DNA of 64,000 nt from Parcubacteria group bacterium (GTDB taxonomy: Bacteria > Patescibacteriota > Minisyncoccia > Moranbacterales > UBA9337): contig JBAZSW010000004.1 in the NCBI GenBank assembly GCA_041662245.1, positions 75,454 to 139,453 on the forward strand. Reading direction: 5' to 3'. The stretch's first letter is position 1; every line of letters starts with the position of its first letter. A program made the position numbers and the translations under genes. Positions 35,897-46,632 of this stretch are shown here, piece by piece. The notes beneath the pieces were generated by a model, which saw only the letters and a program-made list of their open reading frames with translations, searched no databases and was not told the DNA's origin.

Positions 35897-38107
35897 TTAT
35901 GCAACGGGATAAATCCGACGGGGCTTCGCTTTATCTTTTTTGTCATTGGAATTTTTATCGCTATCGGCTATCCTTGCTCTTTCTAATATTTTAACAACAC
36001 CTCGCTCAGCATCCACTTCCACCAAATCTCCATCGTGCAAAACTTGCGTGGCGATTTTGGTCCCGATTATACAAGGTTTTTTAAGTTCGCGAGCCACAAT
36101 GGCAGCGTGACAAGTTATACCACCTTCATCAGTCACAAAAGCACCAGCTTTTTTCATAATAGACATGTATCTTGGATCCGTCATAGACGCAACTAATATT
36201 TCTCCTTCTTGAAAATCTTTTGCCTCTTTAATTAATTTTATAATTCTCACTTTCCCTTTTGCCTTGCCCACACGAGCAATGCTTCCTTTTATTTCATCTA
36301 AACTATATTTTTTATTTCTTGTCTTGTCGATTTCATCTAATATTTTACCTGACTTATTTTGAGAAATAGTTTCTATTCCTTCTTTAGAATATTTGCAAAA
36401 GAAAAAATCTTTGCGTTTTAAATAATTATTAGGTAGCTCACCTGAATTTATAAAAGCATCAAGTTCCTCCCCGCTTAGATATTCTAAAGAATCTTTTTCA
36501 ATATTTTTTTCTTCTTCTATTTTATTCAACAATTCTCTTTCCAAAGTTATTCCATCTCTATGAATATTTTCATATCTTTTTCTTGTTTCTATACACAAAT
36601 CTTTTGTTTCCTGACTCAAGTCATCGAGATATTCTGGAGCATAAACTGATACCATAATAATAGCAAACAATTCTTGTATAAAGTTATGAAGTTTTTTAAT
36701 AGATTTTGTCAGATCGACCTGATTATTTTTGAAAAACTCTTCAGCTTCTAAAAGTTTTTTATTATTTTTTGCAATAAATCTTTTATAGTCATCAATATCA
36801 TTTTTTTGAAAATATGCCTTTGGGATTCCCTTATAATCAACTACCGGCAAAAAATGATAAAATATTCCATTTTCCATCAGAGAATACCAAGGATTTGTCA
36901 TGTAATTAGTCACTCTTTCAAAACTGTCACCAAAAACTTCTCTTGCTATAACAGAAGCAATTAATATAGTGTAATCCCTCTGATGTTTTTCATAGATTAA
37001 ATTTTCTTTCTCTACATACTTCATTAAAGTCGTTATCGGTCGACTTTGGGTGATATAAAATTTTCCACCTTCCTGCGCCCATTCGATATCGCAGGGAAAG
37101 CTGTAATGGTTTTCGATTTTGATGATTAAATCTGAAAGTTCGATAATTTCTTTTTCGTTTAATACTTGAGAAGAAGCTTGAGGTTCAGGGATATCTCGCC
37201 ACTCGTTGGCTGAGATTTCTCCACTTCCAAATCTTTGAGTACAAAGATTTGTTCGGTCGAAATGACATGCTCTATATAATCCTCTGTTTTGCGTGCTGAC
37301 ATTAATATCAACAATCGCTTCTCTAATTCTTAATTCATCATTCTTGATTCCCAACTCCTCATTCTTAATTCTTAATTCATAATTCTTAATTCCAGTCTTA
37401 TCCACCACATAACTGTCCGGGGTAACTGATCCCGATACAATTGCTTCGCCAAGTCCAAAGCCTGCTTCAATGATAAGCTGGTTATAATCTTGGGTCACTG
37501 GATGCACCGAAAAAGCGATACCTGATTTCTCAGATTGAATCATTTTTTGCACCACCACTGCTACCGATATTTTCTGCTTGTGCAATTCTTTTTCAAAACG
37601 ATAGAAAATGGCCCGCGAAGTGAAAAGCGATGCCCAGCATTTTTGGACATTTTTTAATAAATCTTTTTCTGTTGTATTAAGATAAGAATTAAGTTGTCCC
37701 GCCCAAGCCGCCTCAGCTCCGTCTTCAGCGGTGGCACTGGATCTTACAGCAACAAACTCTGCGTCTAGTTTTTTAAATTCTTTTTCAACTTCTTTCTCAA
37801 TCTCTACTGGAATTTTTGCTCCAAGAATTAAAGCTTGGATTTTTTCTGACGCTTTTTCAACCGTATGCATTTTTTGCGTATCCACTGTGTCAAGGATAGC
37901 GGAAATTTCCACATTTAAATCAGTTATTTCTAAAAATTTTTCAAAAGCCCCAGCAAGTACCACAAAACCCGAAGGAACTGGATTGCTAGCAGACTTGTCC
38001 GCCGAAGCTTTAGCGAAGGCGGAAGTCATTTCGCCAAGGGACGCTCCCTTGCCTCCGGCAATCAGAACATCGTTCTTATCTAATTCTTTAAAATTTTTAG
38101 TAAACAT
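35897..38107 (-). CDS. PEP-utilising-enzyme family protein: PPDK-type ATP-grasp N-terminus plus C-terminal phospho-His swivel domain; no PEP/pyruvate TIM-barrel (PEP synthase-like or rifampin phosphotransferase-like architecture)
   Basis: N-term GGKGASLGEM; C-term GGITCHAAIVARELKKPCIIGT; contains a 21-nt tandem repeat encoding ELRIKNE / ELGIKND / ELRIRE. Confidence 0.75.
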   Translation of the reverse strand: MFTKNFKELDKNDVLIAGGKGASLGEMTSAFAKASADKSASNPVPSGFVVLAGAFEKFLEITDLNVEISAILDTVDTQKMHTVEKASEKIQALILGAKIPVEIEKEVEKEFKKLDAEFVAVRSSATAEDGAEAAWAGQLNSYLNTTEKDLLKNVQKCWASLFTSRAIFYRFEKELHKQKISVAVVVQKMIQSEKSGIAFSVHPVTQDYNQLIIEAGFGLGEAIVSGSVTPDSYVVDKTGIKNYELRIKNEELGIKNDELRIREAIVDINVSTQNRGLYRACHFDRTNLCTQRFGSGEISANEWRDIPEPQASSQVLNEKEIIELSDLIIKIENHYSFPCDIEWAQEGGKFYITQSRPITTLMKYVEKENLIYEKHQRDYTILIASVIAREVFGDSFERVTNYMTNPWYSLMENGIFYHFLPVVDYKGIPKAYFQKNDIDDYKRFIAKNNKKLLEAEEFFKNNQVDLTKSIKKLHNFIQELFAIIMVSVYAPEYLDDLSQETKDLCIETRKRYENIHRDGITLERELLNKIEEEKNIEKDSLEYLSGEELDAFINSGELPNNYLKRKDFFFCKYSKEGIETISQNKSGKILDEIDKTRNKKYSLDEIKGSIARVGKAKGKVRIIKLIKEAKDFQEGEILVASMTDPRYMSIMKKAGAFVTDEGGITCHAAIVARELKKPCIIGTKIATQVLHDGDLVEVDAERGVVKILERARIADSDKNSNDKKDKAKPRRIYPVA
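37315..37395 (-). repeat. tandem repeat of about 21 nt (about 3.5 units) inside the PEP-utilising enzyme gene
   Basis: plus strand shows repeated ATTCTTAATTC; protein shows heptad units ELRIKNE-ELGIKND-ELRIRE. Confidence 0.6.
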
Positions 38108-40288: not shown

Positions 40289-42706
40289 TCAAATCTGCCA
40301 TTTATCTCGTTGCTCTTGAGAAATATCTTCTTCATTTCCATCATTGCTATTGTTATTATTTTTATGACCTCCTGACGATTCTTTACTTAATAAAACCTCT
40401 CGAGGTTTAGACCCATCGGCACCCCCCACAATTCCATCTCTTTCCAAGCTATCAATCAAACGAGCAGCTCTATTATAACCAATTCTGAATTTTCTTTGTA
40501 AAAGTGAAGCGGAAGCTTTTCCTAAATCCAAAACAAAATCTTTTACTTCATCATAAATAGTGTCTTCTTCATCATTATCCCGAGAAACAGAGAAATCCAA
40601 TTGTCCAGAGCTATCTCTAGGTTCATTTCCTCTTGGACTCGAATCAGTGTTCAATTCTTCCTCAATATCGTCATCTTCATCTTTTTTATAAACTCGCTCT
40701 CCTTGTTCAATTATATATTCCACTACTCTTCTGACTTCATTTTCTGACACAAAAGAGTTTTGTAATCTTCTGGGCTTAGGAGATTCTGAAGAAAGAAAAA
40801 GTAAATCACCCTTACCCAGTAAAGTTTCTGCTCCTCGCATATCAATAATCGTTCTAGAATCAATTTGACTAGCCACTTGGAGTGCAATTCTAGTTGTAAT
40901 ATTGGCTTTAATTATACCTGTTATAACTTCCACACTAGGCCTCTGGGTGGAAATAATCAAATGAATTCCCACTGCCCTTGCCATCTGTGCCAAACGCATT
41001 ATCGCCCCTTCAACTTCCTTACCGTGGGAAATCATCAAATCCGCTAGTTCATCAATTACGATGACAATAAAAGGTAGCTTCTTTAATTCCTCCTTGACTG
41101 TTTCGCCTGTATCGGGATCGATCACGTCACGAGTCATTCCCTTTTTAAATTTCTGGGAATAAGATTCTAAATCCCTTGAACCAGTTGATTCTAAAATTTT
41201 ATAACGCTCTTCCATCTCCCTTACTGCCCATTTTAAAGAATTGACTACTCTTTTATTATCTGTAATAACTGGCGATAACAGATGAGGGATCCTATTATAA
41301 AGAGAAAGCTCCACTCTTTTTGGATCAACTAATATCATTTTTAATTCATCGGGAGAATTTTGGAAAAGTAAAGACAAGATTATTGAATTGATACATACAC
41401 TTTTCCCAGTTCCCGTTGCCCCTGCAATCAAAAGATGTGGCATTTTTCCCAAATTAGCTACAATGAAATTTCCCTCTACATTTTTTCCTAGAACTAAAGA
41501 CAGGGGAGTTTTTCTATTTTTAAACTCATCACTCTCTAGGGCATTCTTTAATCTAACCATAATTGGCTTTTTGTTAGGAACTTCGATACCAATCAAAGAT
41601 TTTCCAGGAATAGGAGCTTCGATTCTGATAGGATGAGCAGCTAGAGCAAGAGCCAAATCATCTCCTAGCGCCACAATTTTACTTAATTTAACTCCCACCG
41701 CAGGACGAAAACTATATTGAGTAACGGCTGGTCCTATCTTCACTCCACCATCTTCAAGGGCAATGCCAAAATTGGCAAATGTATCTTTTATAATATCAAT
41801 ATTCTCATCAATATTTCCACTGTAAGCCTCTCCACTAGAGTCATCCAAGAGATTAATAGAGGGGAGTTTCCAAACCTCCAAAGATTCCCGATTTATTTTG
41901 TTTGTCTTATTGTATTTATCTTTATTATCAAAAGAAGTATTTTTTATATTAAAATCATCTTTATTATCTCCATTATTGTCTTTTTTTACAGGAATATCAC
42001 TAGGGCCCTCCACAAATTTAACCTCTTTGATATTATGTTCTAAATCAACTTTATTTATCAAACTATCTCCCTCAATATCATTATCTTTTTCCTCCTCATC
42101 TGCTTTCTCTAAAATTTCTTTGTTTGCTACGTCCTCTTCGACTCTGTTCTCTTCTTTTTTTATTTTATTAAATAGATTAATGAAGAATTCTACTAAAGAA
42201 AAATTAAAAGCAATCATTACCCCTATAGAAAAAAATGCAACTAAAAAAACAACGCCTACAATTTTTCCCATAAGTTTTATCAAAGTGAGTGAAATGAAAT
42301 ATCCCACATATCCTCCACCCTGACCTTGTTTAGCTATTTCAGATAATAGCTCATAATCATAAAAAATATGAAAAAAACCAAGTAGACTCAAAAAAGCAAT
42401 AGAAAGACCGGCTATTTTTACCACATAGAAAACAGTTTTCTTTTTATAAAGTAATATTATCGCCGTTAAAAATAAAGTTATCGGAAACAACCATTTCCCC
42501 CAACCAAAAACTACTCCTCCAAATTTATCTAGAAACTTTCCAAAAGCGCCTCCCGCTCCAAAAAATCCAAAAGAAAAAAGAATGGTCATTAAAAATAAAA
42601 GTACAATAGCGATTCCTCTCTTAACGCTATTTTTTAAATTTAAATCAAATTCTATTTTTTTTTCTTGATCTTCCTTGGAGTCTTTTTCTTTTAATTTTTT
42701 TTTCAT
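40289..42706 (-). CDS. ftsK: DNA translocase FtsK/SpoIIIE
   Basis: N-terminal TM helices; Walker A LIAGATGTGKSV; C-terminal gamma-like winged helix. Confidence 0.92.
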   Translation of the reverse strand: MKKKLKEKDSKEDQEKKIEFDLNLKNSVKRGIAIVLLFLMTILFSFGFFGAGGAFGKFLDKFGGVVFGWGKWLFPITLFLTAIILLYKKKTVFYVVKIAGLSIAFLSLLGFFHIFYDYELLSEIAKQGQGGGYVGYFISLTLIKLMGKIVGVVFLVAFFSIGVMIAFNFSLVEFFINLFNKIKKEENRVEEDVANKEILEKADEEEKDNDIEGDSLINKVDLEHNIKEVKFVEGPSDIPVKKDNNGDNKDDFNIKNTSFDNKDKYNKTNKINRESLEVWKLPSINLLDDSSGEAYSGNIDENIDIIKDTFANFGIALEDGGVKIGPAVTQYSFRPAVGVKLSKIVALGDDLALALAAHPIRIEAPIPGKSLIGIEVPNKKPIMVRLKNALESDEFKNRKTPLSLVLGKNVEGNFIVANLGKMPHLLIAGATGTGKSVCINSIILSLLFQNSPDELKMILVDPKRVELSLYNRIPHLLSPVITDNKRVVNSLKWAVREMEERYKILESTGSRDLESYSQKFKKGMTRDVIDPDTGETVKEELKKLPFIVIVIDELADLMISHGKEVEGAIMRLAQMARAVGIHLIISTQRPSVEVITGIIKANITTRIALQVASQIDSRTIIDMRGAETLLGKGDLLFLSSESPKPRRLQNSFVSENEVRRVVEYIIEQGERVYKKDEDDDIEEELNTDSSPRGNEPRDSSGQLDFSVSRDNDEEDTIYDEVKDFVLDLGKASASLLQRKFRIGYNRAARLIDSLERDGIVGGADGSKPREVLLSKESSGGHKNNNNSNDGNEEDISQEQRDKWQI

Positions 42707-42770: not shown

Positions 42771-43943
42771 CTAAAATGTTACTTCTATTTCCATTTCCTT
42801 TCCATCTCTTAAAACATTAAGGGTAGCCACATCCTCTTTCTCATATTGATTAATGAAATTAGACAAAGGATGACTTGGATTAATTTCATTACCATCAATG
42901 GATAAAATTATATCATTAAGTTTGAGTTCAGCTTTTTCGGCAGGACTATCAGCAATAATAGCCAACCCTTGTTTTTCGGAAGAGGAATAAATTAGGGCAC
43001 CCTTGTCTACGGTAAGCTCTTTCAGATTTTTATAGAATGGATTGACCGAAATGTAATATATCCCTAGTTTTGCCGCTTGATCAATTCTATTTTCGACTAC
43101 TCTCTGCATAGAGTCGCTAATCGCATCAATTGGTATTTGAAAATATTTTTTTTCATTATTTATTTCCAACTTAGCGCTGACAGCTATCAGTTCTCCACTA
43201 TGATTGATGACCGGTCCCCCTACATATTTATCATCCTCAATAAAATTTGCCTCTAGCACCCCTTCTAATTTTTCAGATGAAGCGATTCCTCCCCCTGCTA
43301 AATTAAAACTCTCGTCAAAACCGCTCAAAGTTCCTTCAGCCAAATAAGCCTTCTGCAGTCCCGATAAGTTTCCAATAAAAATAACTTTTTTTCCAGAATT
43401 ATTGTCATCACTATTTGCAAAAGGTACTGTAGTTAAATTAATACCATCTACTTTAAGATAGGCTAGGTTTGAAAAATCATCTATTCCCAGAAGCGTCGCA
43501 TCTAAAACATTTCCTCCAAAAGTAACCACTTTATAATCAGCATTTTTTTCCACAACATTGGTTCTATCGGTAACTACGATTCCATCATTAGTTAGAATTG
43601 TTCCTGCTCCAGAAACACCTTTTGAATATTTTCCCAAATTATTCGAAACATTTATTTTTTTAATATTCTTATCATTTTTTTCAAAAGAAAGCACATCCAC
43701 TACAGCATAAACCGCGCTAGAAGCTATCTCACTTATTGAAATATCTTCATTAACAATAACTTTCTCTGTCTTGGTTATGATGGTGGTATTTTTATTATCA
43801 TTATCAAAAATTCCCAATTTTGAAAATATTTTTGAATCTATAAGAGTGGGAGTAAGATATCTTCCGAAAAATAAATTGCCCATCCAACCAAAAAACATTA
43901 TTAAAATACAAACTACAATTACTTTTACTGTTTTTTTCTTCAT
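42771..43943 (-). CDS. HtrA/DegP-like trypsin-fold protein with PDZ domain, catalytic triad apparently lost (pseudoprotease)
   Basis: aligned with DegP: TNNHVV becomes TDRTNVV (no His), DIALI becomes NLAYL (Asp to Asn), GNSGGAL becomes YVGGPVI (Ser to Val); PDZ LNDIILSIDGNEI retained. Confidence 0.6.
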   Translation of the reverse strand: MKKKTVKVIVVCILIMFFGWMGNLFFGRYLTPTLIDSKIFSKLGIFDNDNKNTTIITKTEKVIVNEDISISEIASSAVYAVVDVLSFEKNDKNIKKINVSNNLGKYSKGVSGAGTILTNDGIVVTDRTNVVEKNADYKVVTFGGNVLDATLLGIDDFSNLAYLKVDGINLTTVPFANSDDNNSGKKVIFIGNLSGLQKAYLAEGTLSGFDESFNLAGGGIASSEKLEGVLEANFIEDDKYVGGPVINHSGELIAVSAKLEINNEKKYFQIPIDAISDSMQRVVENRIDQAAKLGIYYISVNPFYKNLKELTVDKGALIYSSSEKQGLAIIADSPAEKAELKLNDIILSIDGNEINPSHPLSNFINQYEKEDVATLNVLRDGKEMEIEVTF

Positions 43944-43994: not shown

Positions 43995-44735
43995 TTAAAT
44001 GTTCGGTAACCAGATTGAACTGTACAAAATAATTATGCTCATAAAAACAAAAAAAACCAGATTTACTAACACTTTTTTGACCGACAGGATGTCTCTAAGA
44101 TAATTCTGAGATAAATCCCAAATAATATAATAAAACATTAAAAGCACTGTTCCTGTAGTAAGATATCCAAATGGCCAAAAGTTTATAGTCCAACCCATTT
44201 CCAAAACACCAAAGCCTAAAACCAAACTATATACCTGCAATTTTTTCTTATTTTCCTCTCCTACTAGCAAAAAATATTGATAACTGATAAGAGCAATATT
44301 AAAAAAATAAAAAGTCATAAGTGCCCACGATGGAATGTCGAAATTTAAATAAACACCATAGGTAGAAGAAAAAAACAAAAAAATAACAGCCATAAGGGAC
44401 ATGTCAATCACTCCCTTGGCAGTCTTACTGTCTGGTTTTTTTGATATTCGATAGATACCAAAAAGCAGAAAATAATCCACTAAACCACTAATTATTATAA
44501 AAATATGCCTCTCAATATTGAAATCTATCAGATGCAGGATTGTCCAAACCGAAAAATAAAAAACTAAAGCAATAAACCAACCCGACCAAGCCTTAGAGAA
44601 CATCCTAAAGGAAATTAAACAAGCCACCAAAAAAATAAAAAAATAAAACCAAAAAAATCCTTTATGCAAAAGCATCGCCTCCAACAAAAGGGAAAAAGCA
44701 ATTGATTGAAATATGGCAGGTAGATATAAAAACAC
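43995..44735 (-). CDS. hypothetical polytopic membrane protein
   Basis: at least 6 predicted TM helices; no motif. Confidence 0.4.
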   Translation of the reverse strand: MFLYLPAIFQSIAFSLLLEAMLLHKGFFWFYFFIFLVACLISFRMFSKAWSGWFIALVFYFSVWTILHLIDFNIERHIFIIISGLVDYFLLFGIYRISKKPDSKTAKGVIDMSLMAVIFLFFSSTYGVYLNFDIPSWALMTFYFFNIALISYQYFLLVGEENKKKLQVYSLVLGFGVLEMGWTINFWPFGYLTTGTVLLMFYYIIWDLSQNYLRDILSVKKVLVNLVFFVFMSIIILYSSIWLPNI

Positions 44736-44835: not shown

Positions 44836-45024
44836 TTAAGCTTCCAGCGAAATAGCATTCACAGGACAACCATCTACAGCTTCTTGGCAATTGCAATCAC
44901 CACATTCTTCAGCTATAACTTTTGATTTTCCTTTTTCAGCATCAATTTTAAAAACAGTAGGACAGATTGCCTCACATGTTCCGCAACCAATACACAAATC
45001 TTCATTAACTTTACATTTCGCCAT
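44836..45024 (-). CDS. ferredoxin (two Cys clusters)
   Basis: CIGCGTCEAICP and CGDCNCQEAVDGCP. Confidence 0.8.
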   Translation of the reverse strand: MAKCKVNEDLCIGCGTCEAICPTVFKIDAEKGKSKVIAEECGDCNCQEAVDGCPVNAISLEA

Positions 45025-45123: not shown

Positions 45124-46197
45124 CTATAAAGCCAACAGGGATGCGTCTTTGTCTGCTTTATTTAGCGACTCCTTTTCAAATTCATCCATTTTCTTATCTT
45201 TAAATTCCACCATACCACTCTTTTGATTCCAAACATAATCAGTTAATAATACTGACACTCGTATTTCTTTGATTTTTTTATCTAACCAATTGGCAAAAGA
45301 TGTCTTAGGGAAAAATAATTGACTTATTTCATAAAGTTTAACTCCATTTGCTTCATTTACATCATCCAATTTTATTATATGATAACCCAAGTCACTTTCA
45401 AGAATATCACTACTATTTCCTTTATTTAAAGAAACAACATCCTTTCTTATCTCTGGAGATAACTGATCCTCTTTAAACCATCCCAATTTACCACCCAAGA
45501 TTGAATCATCTTTCGAAATATCTTTTAATACTTTACTAAAATCTTCTCCTTTTTTAATTTTCGCCAAAGCATCTGCGGAATTTTTTTTAGATTTTTCATT
45601 CTTTTCCTTTCCATCATTTTCAGCTAACCATTTTTCCAACTCATCCTTATATAAACCCGGTCTAACTACCTTATCTTTAAAATCTTCTATTGTCCAACCA
45701 TATAATTTATTTAAATTTTCTTTTATTTTTTCCTGACTGCTATATTCATCCATTTTCCTATCCACGTTGTCATTGACATCTTTTTTAGACACAATAATTC
45801 CCCTTTCTTTAGCTAATATTTCTATCGCCCTGTCTTCAATCATTTTATTTATCAATTCTTTCTCTCTTATTTTTAATCTTCGTTTGCCATCTTCGGTAGT
45901 AAAATCAGTCCGTAAACCCACAGAGGAAAAATCTTGACTCTCATAAAACTTTTTTATAGAAAGTAAGTCTTGATTAACCTCACCAATTGAAATAAAGCTA
46001 GTTCCATCAACTATCACTGCTGGCAGGGGAATATGATTATAGATATAAATAGGAATTTTTTTTGCACTATTAAAACGATAGATAAAAATTATGCCTACCG
46101 CTAAAACGACGCCCACAAAAATAGCACTACCGTAAAGGACTGTACTCATTTTAACTTTCTTCACAGGATTCCCTTTGTCTTTGTCATTCTCCTTCAT
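45124..46197 (-). CDS. parvulin-type peptidyl-prolyl isomerase (PrsA/SurA-like), membrane-anchored
   Basis: N-terminal TM; parvulin core SDLGYHIIKL. Confidence 0.7.
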   Translation of the reverse strand: MKENDKDKGNPVKKVKMSTVLYGSAIFVGVVLAVGIIFIYRFNSAKKIPIYIYNHIPLPAVIVDGTSFISIGEVNQDLLSIKKFYESQDFSSVGLRTDFTTEDGKRRLKIREKELINKMIEDRAIEILAKERGIIVSKKDVNDNVDRKMDEYSSQEKIKENLNKLYGWTIEDFKDKVVRPGLYKDELEKWLAENDGKEKNEKSKKNSADALAKIKKGEDFSKVLKDISKDDSILGGKLGWFKEDQLSPEIRKDVVSLNKGNSSDILESDLGYHIIKLDDVNEANGVKLYEISQLFFPKTSFANWLDKKIKEIRVSVLLTDYVWNQKSGMVEFKDKKMDEFEKESLNKADKDASLLAL

Positions 46198-46230: not shown

Positions 46231-46632
46231 TTAAATGCCTCCTTTCACCACTTCCCACCATTTTTTATAATTGGGCAGATTTTCTTGATATTTCATTTTA
46301 TCAATTTCATTATTATTTTCTTCCAACGAATCATTTGCAGAAGCGCCCAAAACTTTAGAGTTGGGTTGTACTACCACGACTTTTTCCCCTACATTCCTCA
46401 AACTTAATCTATCTTTAGCCACACTTTCCTTATAATGATCCGACTGCAAATAACCTATTTTTTCTTTTAAAAAGTTGTTTTGGGCATTTAACTCTTCGGA
46501 CTCGGATTGAAGTGCGCTGATTTCGCTTTCGATATTTTTTGATCTTTTCATTTCTTTAAAAGTAGGAATGGAAAAAAAAGCCAAAACTCCCAGTAATGCC
46601 ACAGAAACTATTATAAGGAAAAATGATTTCAT
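46231..46632 (-). CDS. septum formation initiator FtsB/DivIC-like
   Basis: TM plus coiled coil; C-terminal YKESVAKDRLSL motif. Confidence 0.6.
   Translation of the reverse strand: MKSFFLIIVSVALLGVLAFFSIPTFKEMKRSKNIESEISALQSESEELNAQNNFLKEKIGYLQSDHYKESVAKDRLSLRNVGEKVVVVQPNSKVLGASANDSLEENNNEIDKMKYQENLPNYKKWWEVVKGGI

Follow-up and report, generated by a model that had tools for sequence, protein, structure and literature searches.

What does a protein with the fold of HtrA endopeptidases do when it carries none of the three residues of the catalytic triad? This question is raised by a gene in a 64,000-nucleotide stretch of DNA from a Parcubacteria group bacterium (assembly GCA_041662245.1, contig JBAZSW010000004.1, positions 75,454 to 139,453; hereafter the window, in whose own numbering features are given, all of them on the minus strand). 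The gene is an open reading frame (ORF; 42771..43943) with an ATG start and encodes a protein of 390 amino acids, here called pseudo-HtrA, that combines a transmembrane (TM) anchor, a degenerate HtrA protease-fold domain and one PDZ domain. An initial annotation, made from the sequence alone, had read it as an HtrA/DegP homolog with all three catalytic residues substituted and had suggested a non-catalytic periplasmic binding or chaperone role. Here we show that pseudo-HtrA, as far as sequence and predicted structure tell, is a full-length, conserved, non-catalytic, membrane-anchored HtrA-fold protein with a PDZ domain that looks competent for ligand binding, and that its gene is coupled to that of a DUF5656 membrane protein, ancestrally within a cluster of protein-folding and quality-control genes.

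Results

Loss of the catalytic triad

A phmmer search against all PDB sequences aligned residues 111-388 of pseudo-HtrA with DegP-like proteins, DegQ, MucD, HhoA, HTRA1/2 and DegS (E-values down to 5e-17). In this pairwise register, Asn129 stands at the His position of the triad, Asn159 at the Asp position and Val241 at the Ser position, and GNSGG of the active enzymes pairs with KYVGG. Profile-profile comparison with hhalign, using 65 family members and 48 intact paralogs, ran through the protease core without a gap (probability 100, E-value 6.6e-59) and placed N159 and V241 as the pairwise alignment did, with Thr128 at the His position. The substitutions listed in the initial annotation (Thr/Asn, Asn and Val) are thereby confirmed, and the Thr/Asn ambiguity comes down to a register shift of a single residue. 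Across the family, the His position (T128 by profile or N129 by pairwise alignment; 43557..43562) is a variable column that is never His, and the Asp position (N159 in both kinds of alignment; 43467..43469) is N, D, E or G. The turn GNSGGP is replaced by KYVGGP (43212..43229), with V241 at the nucleophile and [YF][VILA]GGP as the family motif; its first reading as YVGGPV agrees with the KYVGGPV of the alignments. A catalytic triad at shifted positions was considered and rejected, as the profile alignment is gapless, His makes up at most 25% of any column in the 85-sequence family alignment and the only two His residues of pseudo-HtrA (248 and 358) are both unconserved; His, Asp and Ser are not restored elsewhere.

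According to the profile alignment, pseudo-HtrA has lost not only the triad and the Asn-Ser of the nucleophile turn (GGP is kept), but also about 20 residues of the LA loop and the S1-pocket strand, IQTDAAIN in the active paralogs, where it leads into the active site. It has kept an xSEKLxx motif just before the lost strand and the segment YFQIP, which is GFALP or GFAIP in the active paralogs. The former motif lies within SSEKLEGV (residues 222-229; 43257..43280), the most conserved motif of the family, which pairs with xTERLxNI (TERLSNI) ahead of IQTDAAIN; the Glu of the TERLSNI segment is invariant in active paralogs. Going by DegP/DegS numbering, we presume that this region is the sensor loop L3, and we treat the assignment as a lead only. 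Pseudo-HtrA has neither the catalytic triad nor the GNSGG(A/P)L motif of HtrA endopeptidases.

Fold and domain architecture

Pfam detected Trypsin_2 at residues 112-255 (E-value 5e-13, 50.4 bits against a cutoff of 27.6) and PDZ_2 at residues 329-389 (47 bits against a cutoff of 27). The curated NCBIfam models of HtrA, DegP and DegS match pseudo-HtrA from end to end, all far under their cutoffs (NF047968, 116.6 against 470 bits; TIGR02037, 108.1 against 416.2; TIGR02038, 88.8 against 422.95), and such full-length matches below the cutoff are the pattern of a divergent, non-orthodox HtrA member. Lacking the triad and the GNSGG motif and staying below the curated cutoffs, pseudo-HtrA fits best among the non-peptidase homologues of S1C. 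An AlphaFold2 (AF2) model built from a 65-sequence alignment reached a mean predicted local distance difference test score (pLDDT) of 85.2 and a predicted template modelling score (pTM) of 0.75, with the cores of the protease and PDZ domains mostly above 90. When this model was compared with the PDB using Foldseek, the best matches were all HtrAs, namely DegP, DegQ, MucD, DegS and M. tuberculosis HtrA (E-values around 1e-22, target-normalised TM-scores up to 0.84). Pfam, phmmer, hhalign and the model thus agree on the HtrA/DegP homology that had been called by eye, and the formal alignment and structure prediction proposed as a check uphold both the loss of the triad and the HtrA fold.

Pseudo-HtrA has the architecture that defines HtrAs, in which a protease domain of the chymotrypsin fold precedes one or more PDZ domains. 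The HtrA-type domain without the triad occupies residues 67-283 (43095..43745; hhalign probability 100, Foldseek), and the PDZ domain residues 290-390 (42774..43076; Pfam PDZ_2/PDZ_6 and hhalign against active paralogs). Within the latter, the carboxylate-binding loop KLGI (residues 292-295; 43059-43070) pairs with YLGV of the active paralogs, G294 is invariant in the family, and the GSPAEKAG helix is retained in alignment with the active paralogs. The PDZ domain is therefore retained as initially claimed and, having the x-Phi-G-Phi loop and the alphaB/betaB groove, is predicted to be able to bind C-terminal peptides. The N-terminal anchor, also claimed initially, was recovered as a hydrophobic segment at residues 3-28 (43860..43937; Kyte-Doolittle hydropathy 2.42) within an AF2 helix spanning residues 2-36, and the MKKK ahead of it indicates an N-in orientation. 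This helix contains a small-residue motif, G19/G22, with both positions at least 90% conserved. A family-specific juxtamembrane segment at residues 51-62 (43758..43793; consensus NVTIINKTEQV) has invariant T54 and E60 and low pLDDT; residues 43-66 fall below 50 and are disordered in the monomer model. The G19/G22 motif and the juxtamembrane segment look like interaction surfaces.

Conservation of the inactive state across a clade

The best 120 homologs of pseudo-HtrA share 39-100% identity with it and come mostly from Candidatus Moranbacteria/Moraniibacteriota. At the nucleophile column, 120 of 120 have Val, Ile, Leu or Ala inside a conserved [YF]xGGP, their His column is never His, and their Asp column shows N, D, E or G. 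When 1.84 billion cluster representatives were scanned exhaustively with HMMER, 92 matched below 1e-30. The triad is missing from each of the best approximately 55 clusters (at 50% identity), and from about 68 such clusters in total; canonical HtrAs (TNKHV / D / GNSGGPL) enter the list only under about 153 bits, the nearest named one being from a bacterium of the Candidate Phyla Radiation (CPR). In a neighbour-joining tree, a coarse method, 68 of 73 triad-less sequences formed one pure clade apart from the intact paralogs, with five outside. Scanning one genome per GTDB species with the SSEKLEGV-region motif as the pattern returned at least 80 loci, whose records are titled, with few exceptions, Moraniibacteriota, Parcubacteria or Patescibacteria. 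Together with four metagenome contigs, 80 of these make up the 84 genomic orthologs, a few of them redundant, on which the counts below are based. All 84 are intact ORFs of approximately 370-400 amino acids with neither the His nor the Ser motif; G[ND]SGG occurs in none of them and in 55 of 55 active paralogs. The degenerate triad is thus fixed across the clade, which is what defines an HtrA pseudoprotease, and the substitutions recur far more regularly than chance would allow.

Intact ORFs, 20 invariant columns in the family alignment and a confidently predicted fold argue for retention under purifying selection. Over the same 52 genomes, pseudo-HtrA has a mean pairwise identity of 0.48, against 0.565 in the active paralog and 0.46 in DUF5656; pseudo-HtrA therefore evolves somewhat faster than the intact paralog but no faster than DUF5656, as expected of a gene that is maintained and not decaying. 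The nearest related DNA available for comparison is about 72% identical at the protein level, a distance at which synonymous sites would be saturated. It is very improbable that the gene encodes an enzyme with a non-canonical active site, or that it is a decaying pseudogene or an annotation artefact. The former idea could appeal to the serine protease label of public databases and to a few divergent clade members that have Ser in the nucleophile column (for example P0128 and P0170), but it is contradicted by the hydrophobic nucleophile column of all 120 close homologs and by the lack of any conserved His. Moreover, the conserved Ser residues sit in the L3-region motif or the PDZ domain, and several of them also occur at corresponding places in active HtrAs, a sign that their roles are structural. 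As to a pseudogene, ORFs are intact and of constant length in 84 genomes, the fold is confident, and the frameshifts or stops in many orthologs that decay would leave were not seen.

Two points on public records belong here. Triad-less members such as P0099, P0102, P0011 and P0023 are named '2-alkenal reductase', 'Protease Do' or 'S1C family serine protease', which are propagated over-annotations. In addition, metagenome-assembled genome records titled 'uncultured Bdellovibrionales bacterium' carry the typical Moranbacteria/CPR locus (L018, L020, L022, L023, L034 and L037, and likewise L041, L048, L071, L074 and L081), which looks like a systematic taxonomic mislabel.

DUF5656 as the conserved neighbour

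The gene directly upstream of pseudo-HtrA encodes a DUF5656 protein in 82 of the 84 loci, and the remaining two end at a contig edge. Most gaps between the two genes measure a few tens of base pairs and some pairs overlap; in the window the gap is 51 bp and contains no terminator-like site. The initial annotation had instead pointed to ftsK (40289-42706), which is indeed the next gene downstream. This neighbour follows pseudo-HtrA in only 13 of 84 loci, all from the window's own subclade (at least 46% identity), and lies outside the conserved module; being lineage-specific, it is uninformative, and DUF5656 is the conserved neighbour.

In the window, the DUF5656 gene (43995-44735) has a GTG start and encodes 246 amino acids with nine TM helices (Pfam PF18900, 36.5 bits against a gathering threshold of 23.3). 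The public gene call is a truncation to 202 amino acids (P0390), whereas homologs have 246. The family comprises 307 clusters from the same taxa as pseudo-HtrA, and the 120 homologs among the matches listed are all PF18900. The AF2 model (pLDDT 90.6, pTM 0.88) consists of nine helices, and a Foldseek comparison with the PDB found no structural relative (best E-value 0.76, TM-score at most 0.31). Three motifs are near-invariant, NFWPFGYLTTG, DQTARG and YGxYLNF, the first of which forms an outer loop/helix (44151..44183). The even-numbered loops are rich in Lys and Arg, from which the positive-inside rule predicts an N-in, C-out topology.

This topology would put the C-terminal tail, LYSSIWLPNI-COOH in the window (43998..44027), outside the cytoplasm, on the membrane side where the PDZ domain of pseudo-HtrA lies. 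Across 179 distinct sequences the tail follows the motif SS[RK]W[LI]Px[VIL]-COOH in a register fixed to the free carboxylate, with L at -10, S/T at -8, S at -7, R/K at -6, W at -5 (176 of 179), L/I at -4, P at -3 and V/I/L at -1 (168 of 179). PDZ ligands are characterised by a fixed register combined with a hydrophobic end, and the tail is therefore a candidate ligand.

A membrane protein of this kind might also suggest a sensor, in which PDZ and L3 would detect misfolded envelope proteins and pass the signal across the membrane through the nine-TM DUF5656, much as in DegS but without proteolysis. Such a module would fit with how strongly the L3-region motif SSEKLEGV and the PDZ domain are conserved, and with the invariant outer-face motifs of the polytopic DUF5656. 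We consider it improbable, as the cytoplasmic loops of DUF5656 are just a few residues each, the protein has no recognisable cytoplasmic output domain, and no regulator gene is conserved in the cluster across loci.

The intact paralog and the ancestral gene cluster

The conserved order of the cluster is DivIC, PpiC-type peptidyl-prolyl cis-trans isomerase (PPIase), small ferredoxin, in part of the loci intact HtrA and ClpB, then DUF5656 and pseudo-HtrA. In the window it comprises a DivIC/FtsB-like septum protein (46231..46632), a membrane-anchored PpiC-type PPIase resembling PrsA/SurA (45124..46197) and a small 4Fe-4S ferredoxin (44836..45024); in most relatives, an intact htrA lies between the ferredoxin gene and DUF5656. 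By content, 34 loci have HtrA, ClpB, DUF5656 and pseudo-HtrA, 21 have HtrA, DUF5656 and pseudo-HtrA, and 10 have ClpB, DUF5656 and pseudo-HtrA; 13 are of the window type (DUF5656, pseudo-HtrA and FtsK), four consist of DUF5656 and pseudo-HtrA alone, and two are cut at a contig end. The ClpB-type AAA+ disaggregase (about 871 amino acids) is encoded in 44 of 84 loci, between intact htrA, or the ferredoxin gene, and DUF5656; examples among L017-L086 are L026 (6512-9130) and L028 (between about 6200 and about 9200). In five loci clpB directly follows the ferredoxin gene, with no active htrA between them. Two divergent triad-less members have other surroundings: P0132 (37% identity; L087:6928-9176) is encoded directly after an SBF-family transporter gene, and P0154 (30% identity; JGI 3300075153 contig) after ClpB and a 247-amino-acid protein without a Pfam match that may be a diverged DUF5656.

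All 55 intact paralogs encoded upstream carry TN.H[VI] and G[ND]SGG, and H158, D189 and S270 are invariant in their alignment. They share the domain architecture of pseudo-HtrA and are about 27-29% identical to it. In the remaining 29 loci, which include the whole subclade of the window, there is no active htrA within 10 kb upstream. The second, intact htrA that the initial annotation had recommended looking for is thus an adjacent gene in most of the family; none was found in the 64-kb window, where tblastn with two intact paralogs matched pseudo-HtrA alone, and clpB is likewise absent. A profile of 48 active paralogs searched against 5.8e9 proteins gave at least 8000 matches, the best 120 all at 672-703 bits, too many to single out the window lineage. 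Near-genome-length contigs of the window's subclade are the one that carries P0393 (970,315 bp) and L001 (JGI Ga0209417_1000008; 597,101 bp).

The paralog brings up the idea that pseudo-HtrA is a dedicated regulatory subunit that inhibits, activates or targets the intact HtrA and has no function of its own, acting either as MamO does on MamE or in mixed trimers like plant Deg5/Deg8. Its basis is an intact paralog of the same architecture in the cluster of 55 of 84 loci and the precedent of MamO, a degenerate HtrA that promotes MamE proteolysis non-catalytically (PMC4794232). We regard it as unlikely, given that pseudo-HtrA is still conserved in the 29 loci without a nearby active gene and that the paralogs are only about 27-29% identical. 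A second idea is that pseudo-HtrA works alone as a holdase, which binds exported proteins in their unfolded state and forms a trimer or larger oligomer in the manner of DegP S210A; the DUF5656 adjacency would then reflect only co-expression, or a function that is unrelated. HtrA/DegP that has lost its proteolytic activity still shows chaperone-like activity (PMC10715036), PDZ and overall fold are intact in pseudo-HtrA, and the protein persists in the window's subclade with no active HtrA next to it. A stand-alone holdase is nevertheless distinctly unlikely, since the near-universal adjacency with short gaps or overlaps and the PDZ-ligand-like tail of DUF5656 are hard to dismiss, and the LA loop is about 20 residues shorter than that of the active paralog. 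Furthermore, pseudo-HtrA has a single PDZ domain and DegP cages, as general background, use a second one.

Other observations in the window

A PPDK/PEP-utilising-like ORF (PEP, phosphoenolpyruvate; 35897-38107) contains an internal low-complexity insert, GIKNYELRIKNEELGIKNDELRI, at about 37325-37393, which is encoded by a repeat rich in AAGAATTA. The product is 736 amino acids long in the window, its ortholog has 1776 amino acids in L001 and is split into 1184 and 570 amino acids in L002, which suggests a variable or fragmented gene model. Across window positions 1-64000, the minus strand carries nearly all long ORFs. GC skew changes sign at about 12-16 kb and near 62 kb, and between about 16 kb and 62 kb it stays negative; both features are consistent with a strong replication-strand bias of genes.

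Discussion

We propose, with a probability of roughly 0.6, that pseudo-HtrA arose from a duplicated HtrA, lost catalysis and has been retained for binding or regulation, as a subunit that acts together with DUF5656 in one complex. A membrane-anchored HtrA would have been duplicated, and one copy would then have lost its catalytic residues and been kept as a subunit of extracytoplasmic protein quality control. Pseudo-HtrA would form a membrane complex with DUF5656, whose tail may occupy the PDZ groove in the way that the C-termini of outer membrane proteins (OMPs) dock in DegS, and the vestigial substrate cleft and L3/PDZ apparatus of pseudo-HtrA may hold unfolded secreted or membrane proteins. 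Alternatively, it might modulate the intact HtrA, where there is one, as MamO does for MamE. Of these components, docking of the tail in the PDZ groove, suggested by the tail motif and the retained binding loop, is a tentative proposal that falls short of even odds, and a modulation of the intact paralog, argued by analogy with MamO/MamE, is somewhat more doubtful. The pair persists in subclades, that of the window among them, whose loci have lost htrA and clpB, which marks DUF5656 and pseudo-HtrA as the core functional unit and argues that it does not strictly depend on a neighbouring active protease gene. More speculatively, and on balance rather unlikely, the two proteins could form an unrecognised two-protein machine of Moranbacteria-like CPR bacteria, joined tail to PDZ, that recognises or gates clients in extracytoplasmic proteostasis, in the window lineage maybe without any HtrA protease.

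Several points weigh against a subunit working with DUF5656. Physical contacts of pseudo-HtrA with DUF5656, and with the active HtrA, are putative. Correlation of pairwise distances is 0.67 for pseudo-HtrA with DUF5656 and 0.55 for pseudo-HtrA with the active paralog, a slight gap over 52 genomes that is confounded by phylogeny, and we do not count this weakly discriminating mirror-tree comparison as evidence. As no intact htrA was found within the 64 kb, the idea that pseudo-HtrA regulates an active HtrA may not hold for the window lineage, and the divergent P0132 follows a transporter gene instead of DUF5656. The S1-pocket strand is unconserved in the pseudo-HtrA family, which makes substrate binding by the cleft uncertain. 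Finally, both the L3 assignment and a monoderm envelope draw on general background and are presumed here.

Pseudo-HtrA shares features with several known systems. Like MamO in the MamO/MamE pair, it is a paralog with a degenerate triad that forms a monophyletic clade after duplication; MamO is encoded near the active MamE, and the pseudo-HtrA family near an active HtrA in 55 of 84 loci. MamO is not known to have a PDZ domain and bears a TauE-like transporter domain at its C-terminus, whereas pseudo-HtrA keeps its PDZ domain, has a single N-terminal TM helix, is paired with DUF5656 and occurs in a CPR taxon without magnetosomes. Nor is it a MamO proper, for MamO binds transition metals via a surface di-His motif (PMC4794232), while the pseudo-HtrA family is devoid of any conserved His and its context is the DivIC-PPIase-ferredoxin-DUF5656 cluster and not a magnetosome island. 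With E. coli DegP S210A and inactive B. subtilis HtrA, pseudo-HtrA has in common the HtrA fold and PDZ, the missing nucleophile and a link to extracytoplasmic quality control. B. subtilis HtrA is also built in the same way, from a single N-terminal TM helix, the protease domain and a single PDZ domain. Those inactive proteins, however, were made in the laboratory by point mutation and still have His, Asp and the oxyanion loop; pseudo-HtrA naturally lacks all three residues and the S1 strand, in a state fixed across its clade, and appears to have a dedicated membrane partner. The likeness to DegS lies in the membrane anchor, the single PDZ domain and the conserved L3-region motif and PDZ loop. 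DegS binds OMP C-termini (YxF-COOH) at its PDZ domain and relays the signal via L3, and the counterpart here would be the candidate hydrophobic tail of DUF5656 on the same membrane side. DegS, though, is an active site-1 protease that cleaves RseA; pseudo-HtrA cannot cleave, and its proposed ligand is the tail of a constitutive partner and not a stress signal. In plants, the degenerate second protease domain of DEG7, which serves in oligomerisation, and AtDeg16 are naturally inactive and retained (PMC3194040, PMC3473262); the DEG7 domain is part of the same polypeptide as an active one, whereas pseudo-HtrA is a separate bacterial gene product.

HtrA pseudoproteases as such are therefore already known, in the form of MamO, inactive MamE duplicates, the DEG7 domain and inactive Deg proteins. 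What differs in the pseudo-HtrA clade is that the PDZ domain is kept, that there is no metal-binding His motif, that it extends over one lineage of the ultra-small CPR bacteria and that the polytopic partner is obligate and structurally novel. Our literature searches found no description of the clade, nothing on the HtrA catalytic triad in Patescibacteria, nothing relevant on HtrA in the Candidate Phyla Radiation and nothing on DUF5656. Of the role proposed in the initial annotation, the non-catalytic part stands and binding or chaperone activity is a plausible reading. The term periplasmic is imprecise; since the general view is that CPR bacteria have no outer membrane, 'extracytoplasmic, membrane-anchored' is the safer wording.

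Public annotation of such proteins as active 'Protease Do' or 'S1C serine protease' leads metabolic and proteostasis reconstructions of CPR bacteria to over-count proteases. To our knowledge, naturally protease-dead HtrAs are rare and MamO alone has been dissected, and a clade-wide pseudo-HtrA that retains its PDZ domain would offer a natural separation-of-function system for the debated chaperone and regulatory side of HtrA. Its pairing with DUF5656 would give a first functional handle on that family. The loci may also trace an evolutionary trajectory in a phylum of reduced genomes, in which duplication was followed by loss of catalysis and then by loss of the partner. That genomes as extremely reduced as these keep a 'dead' enzyme argues for an important role.

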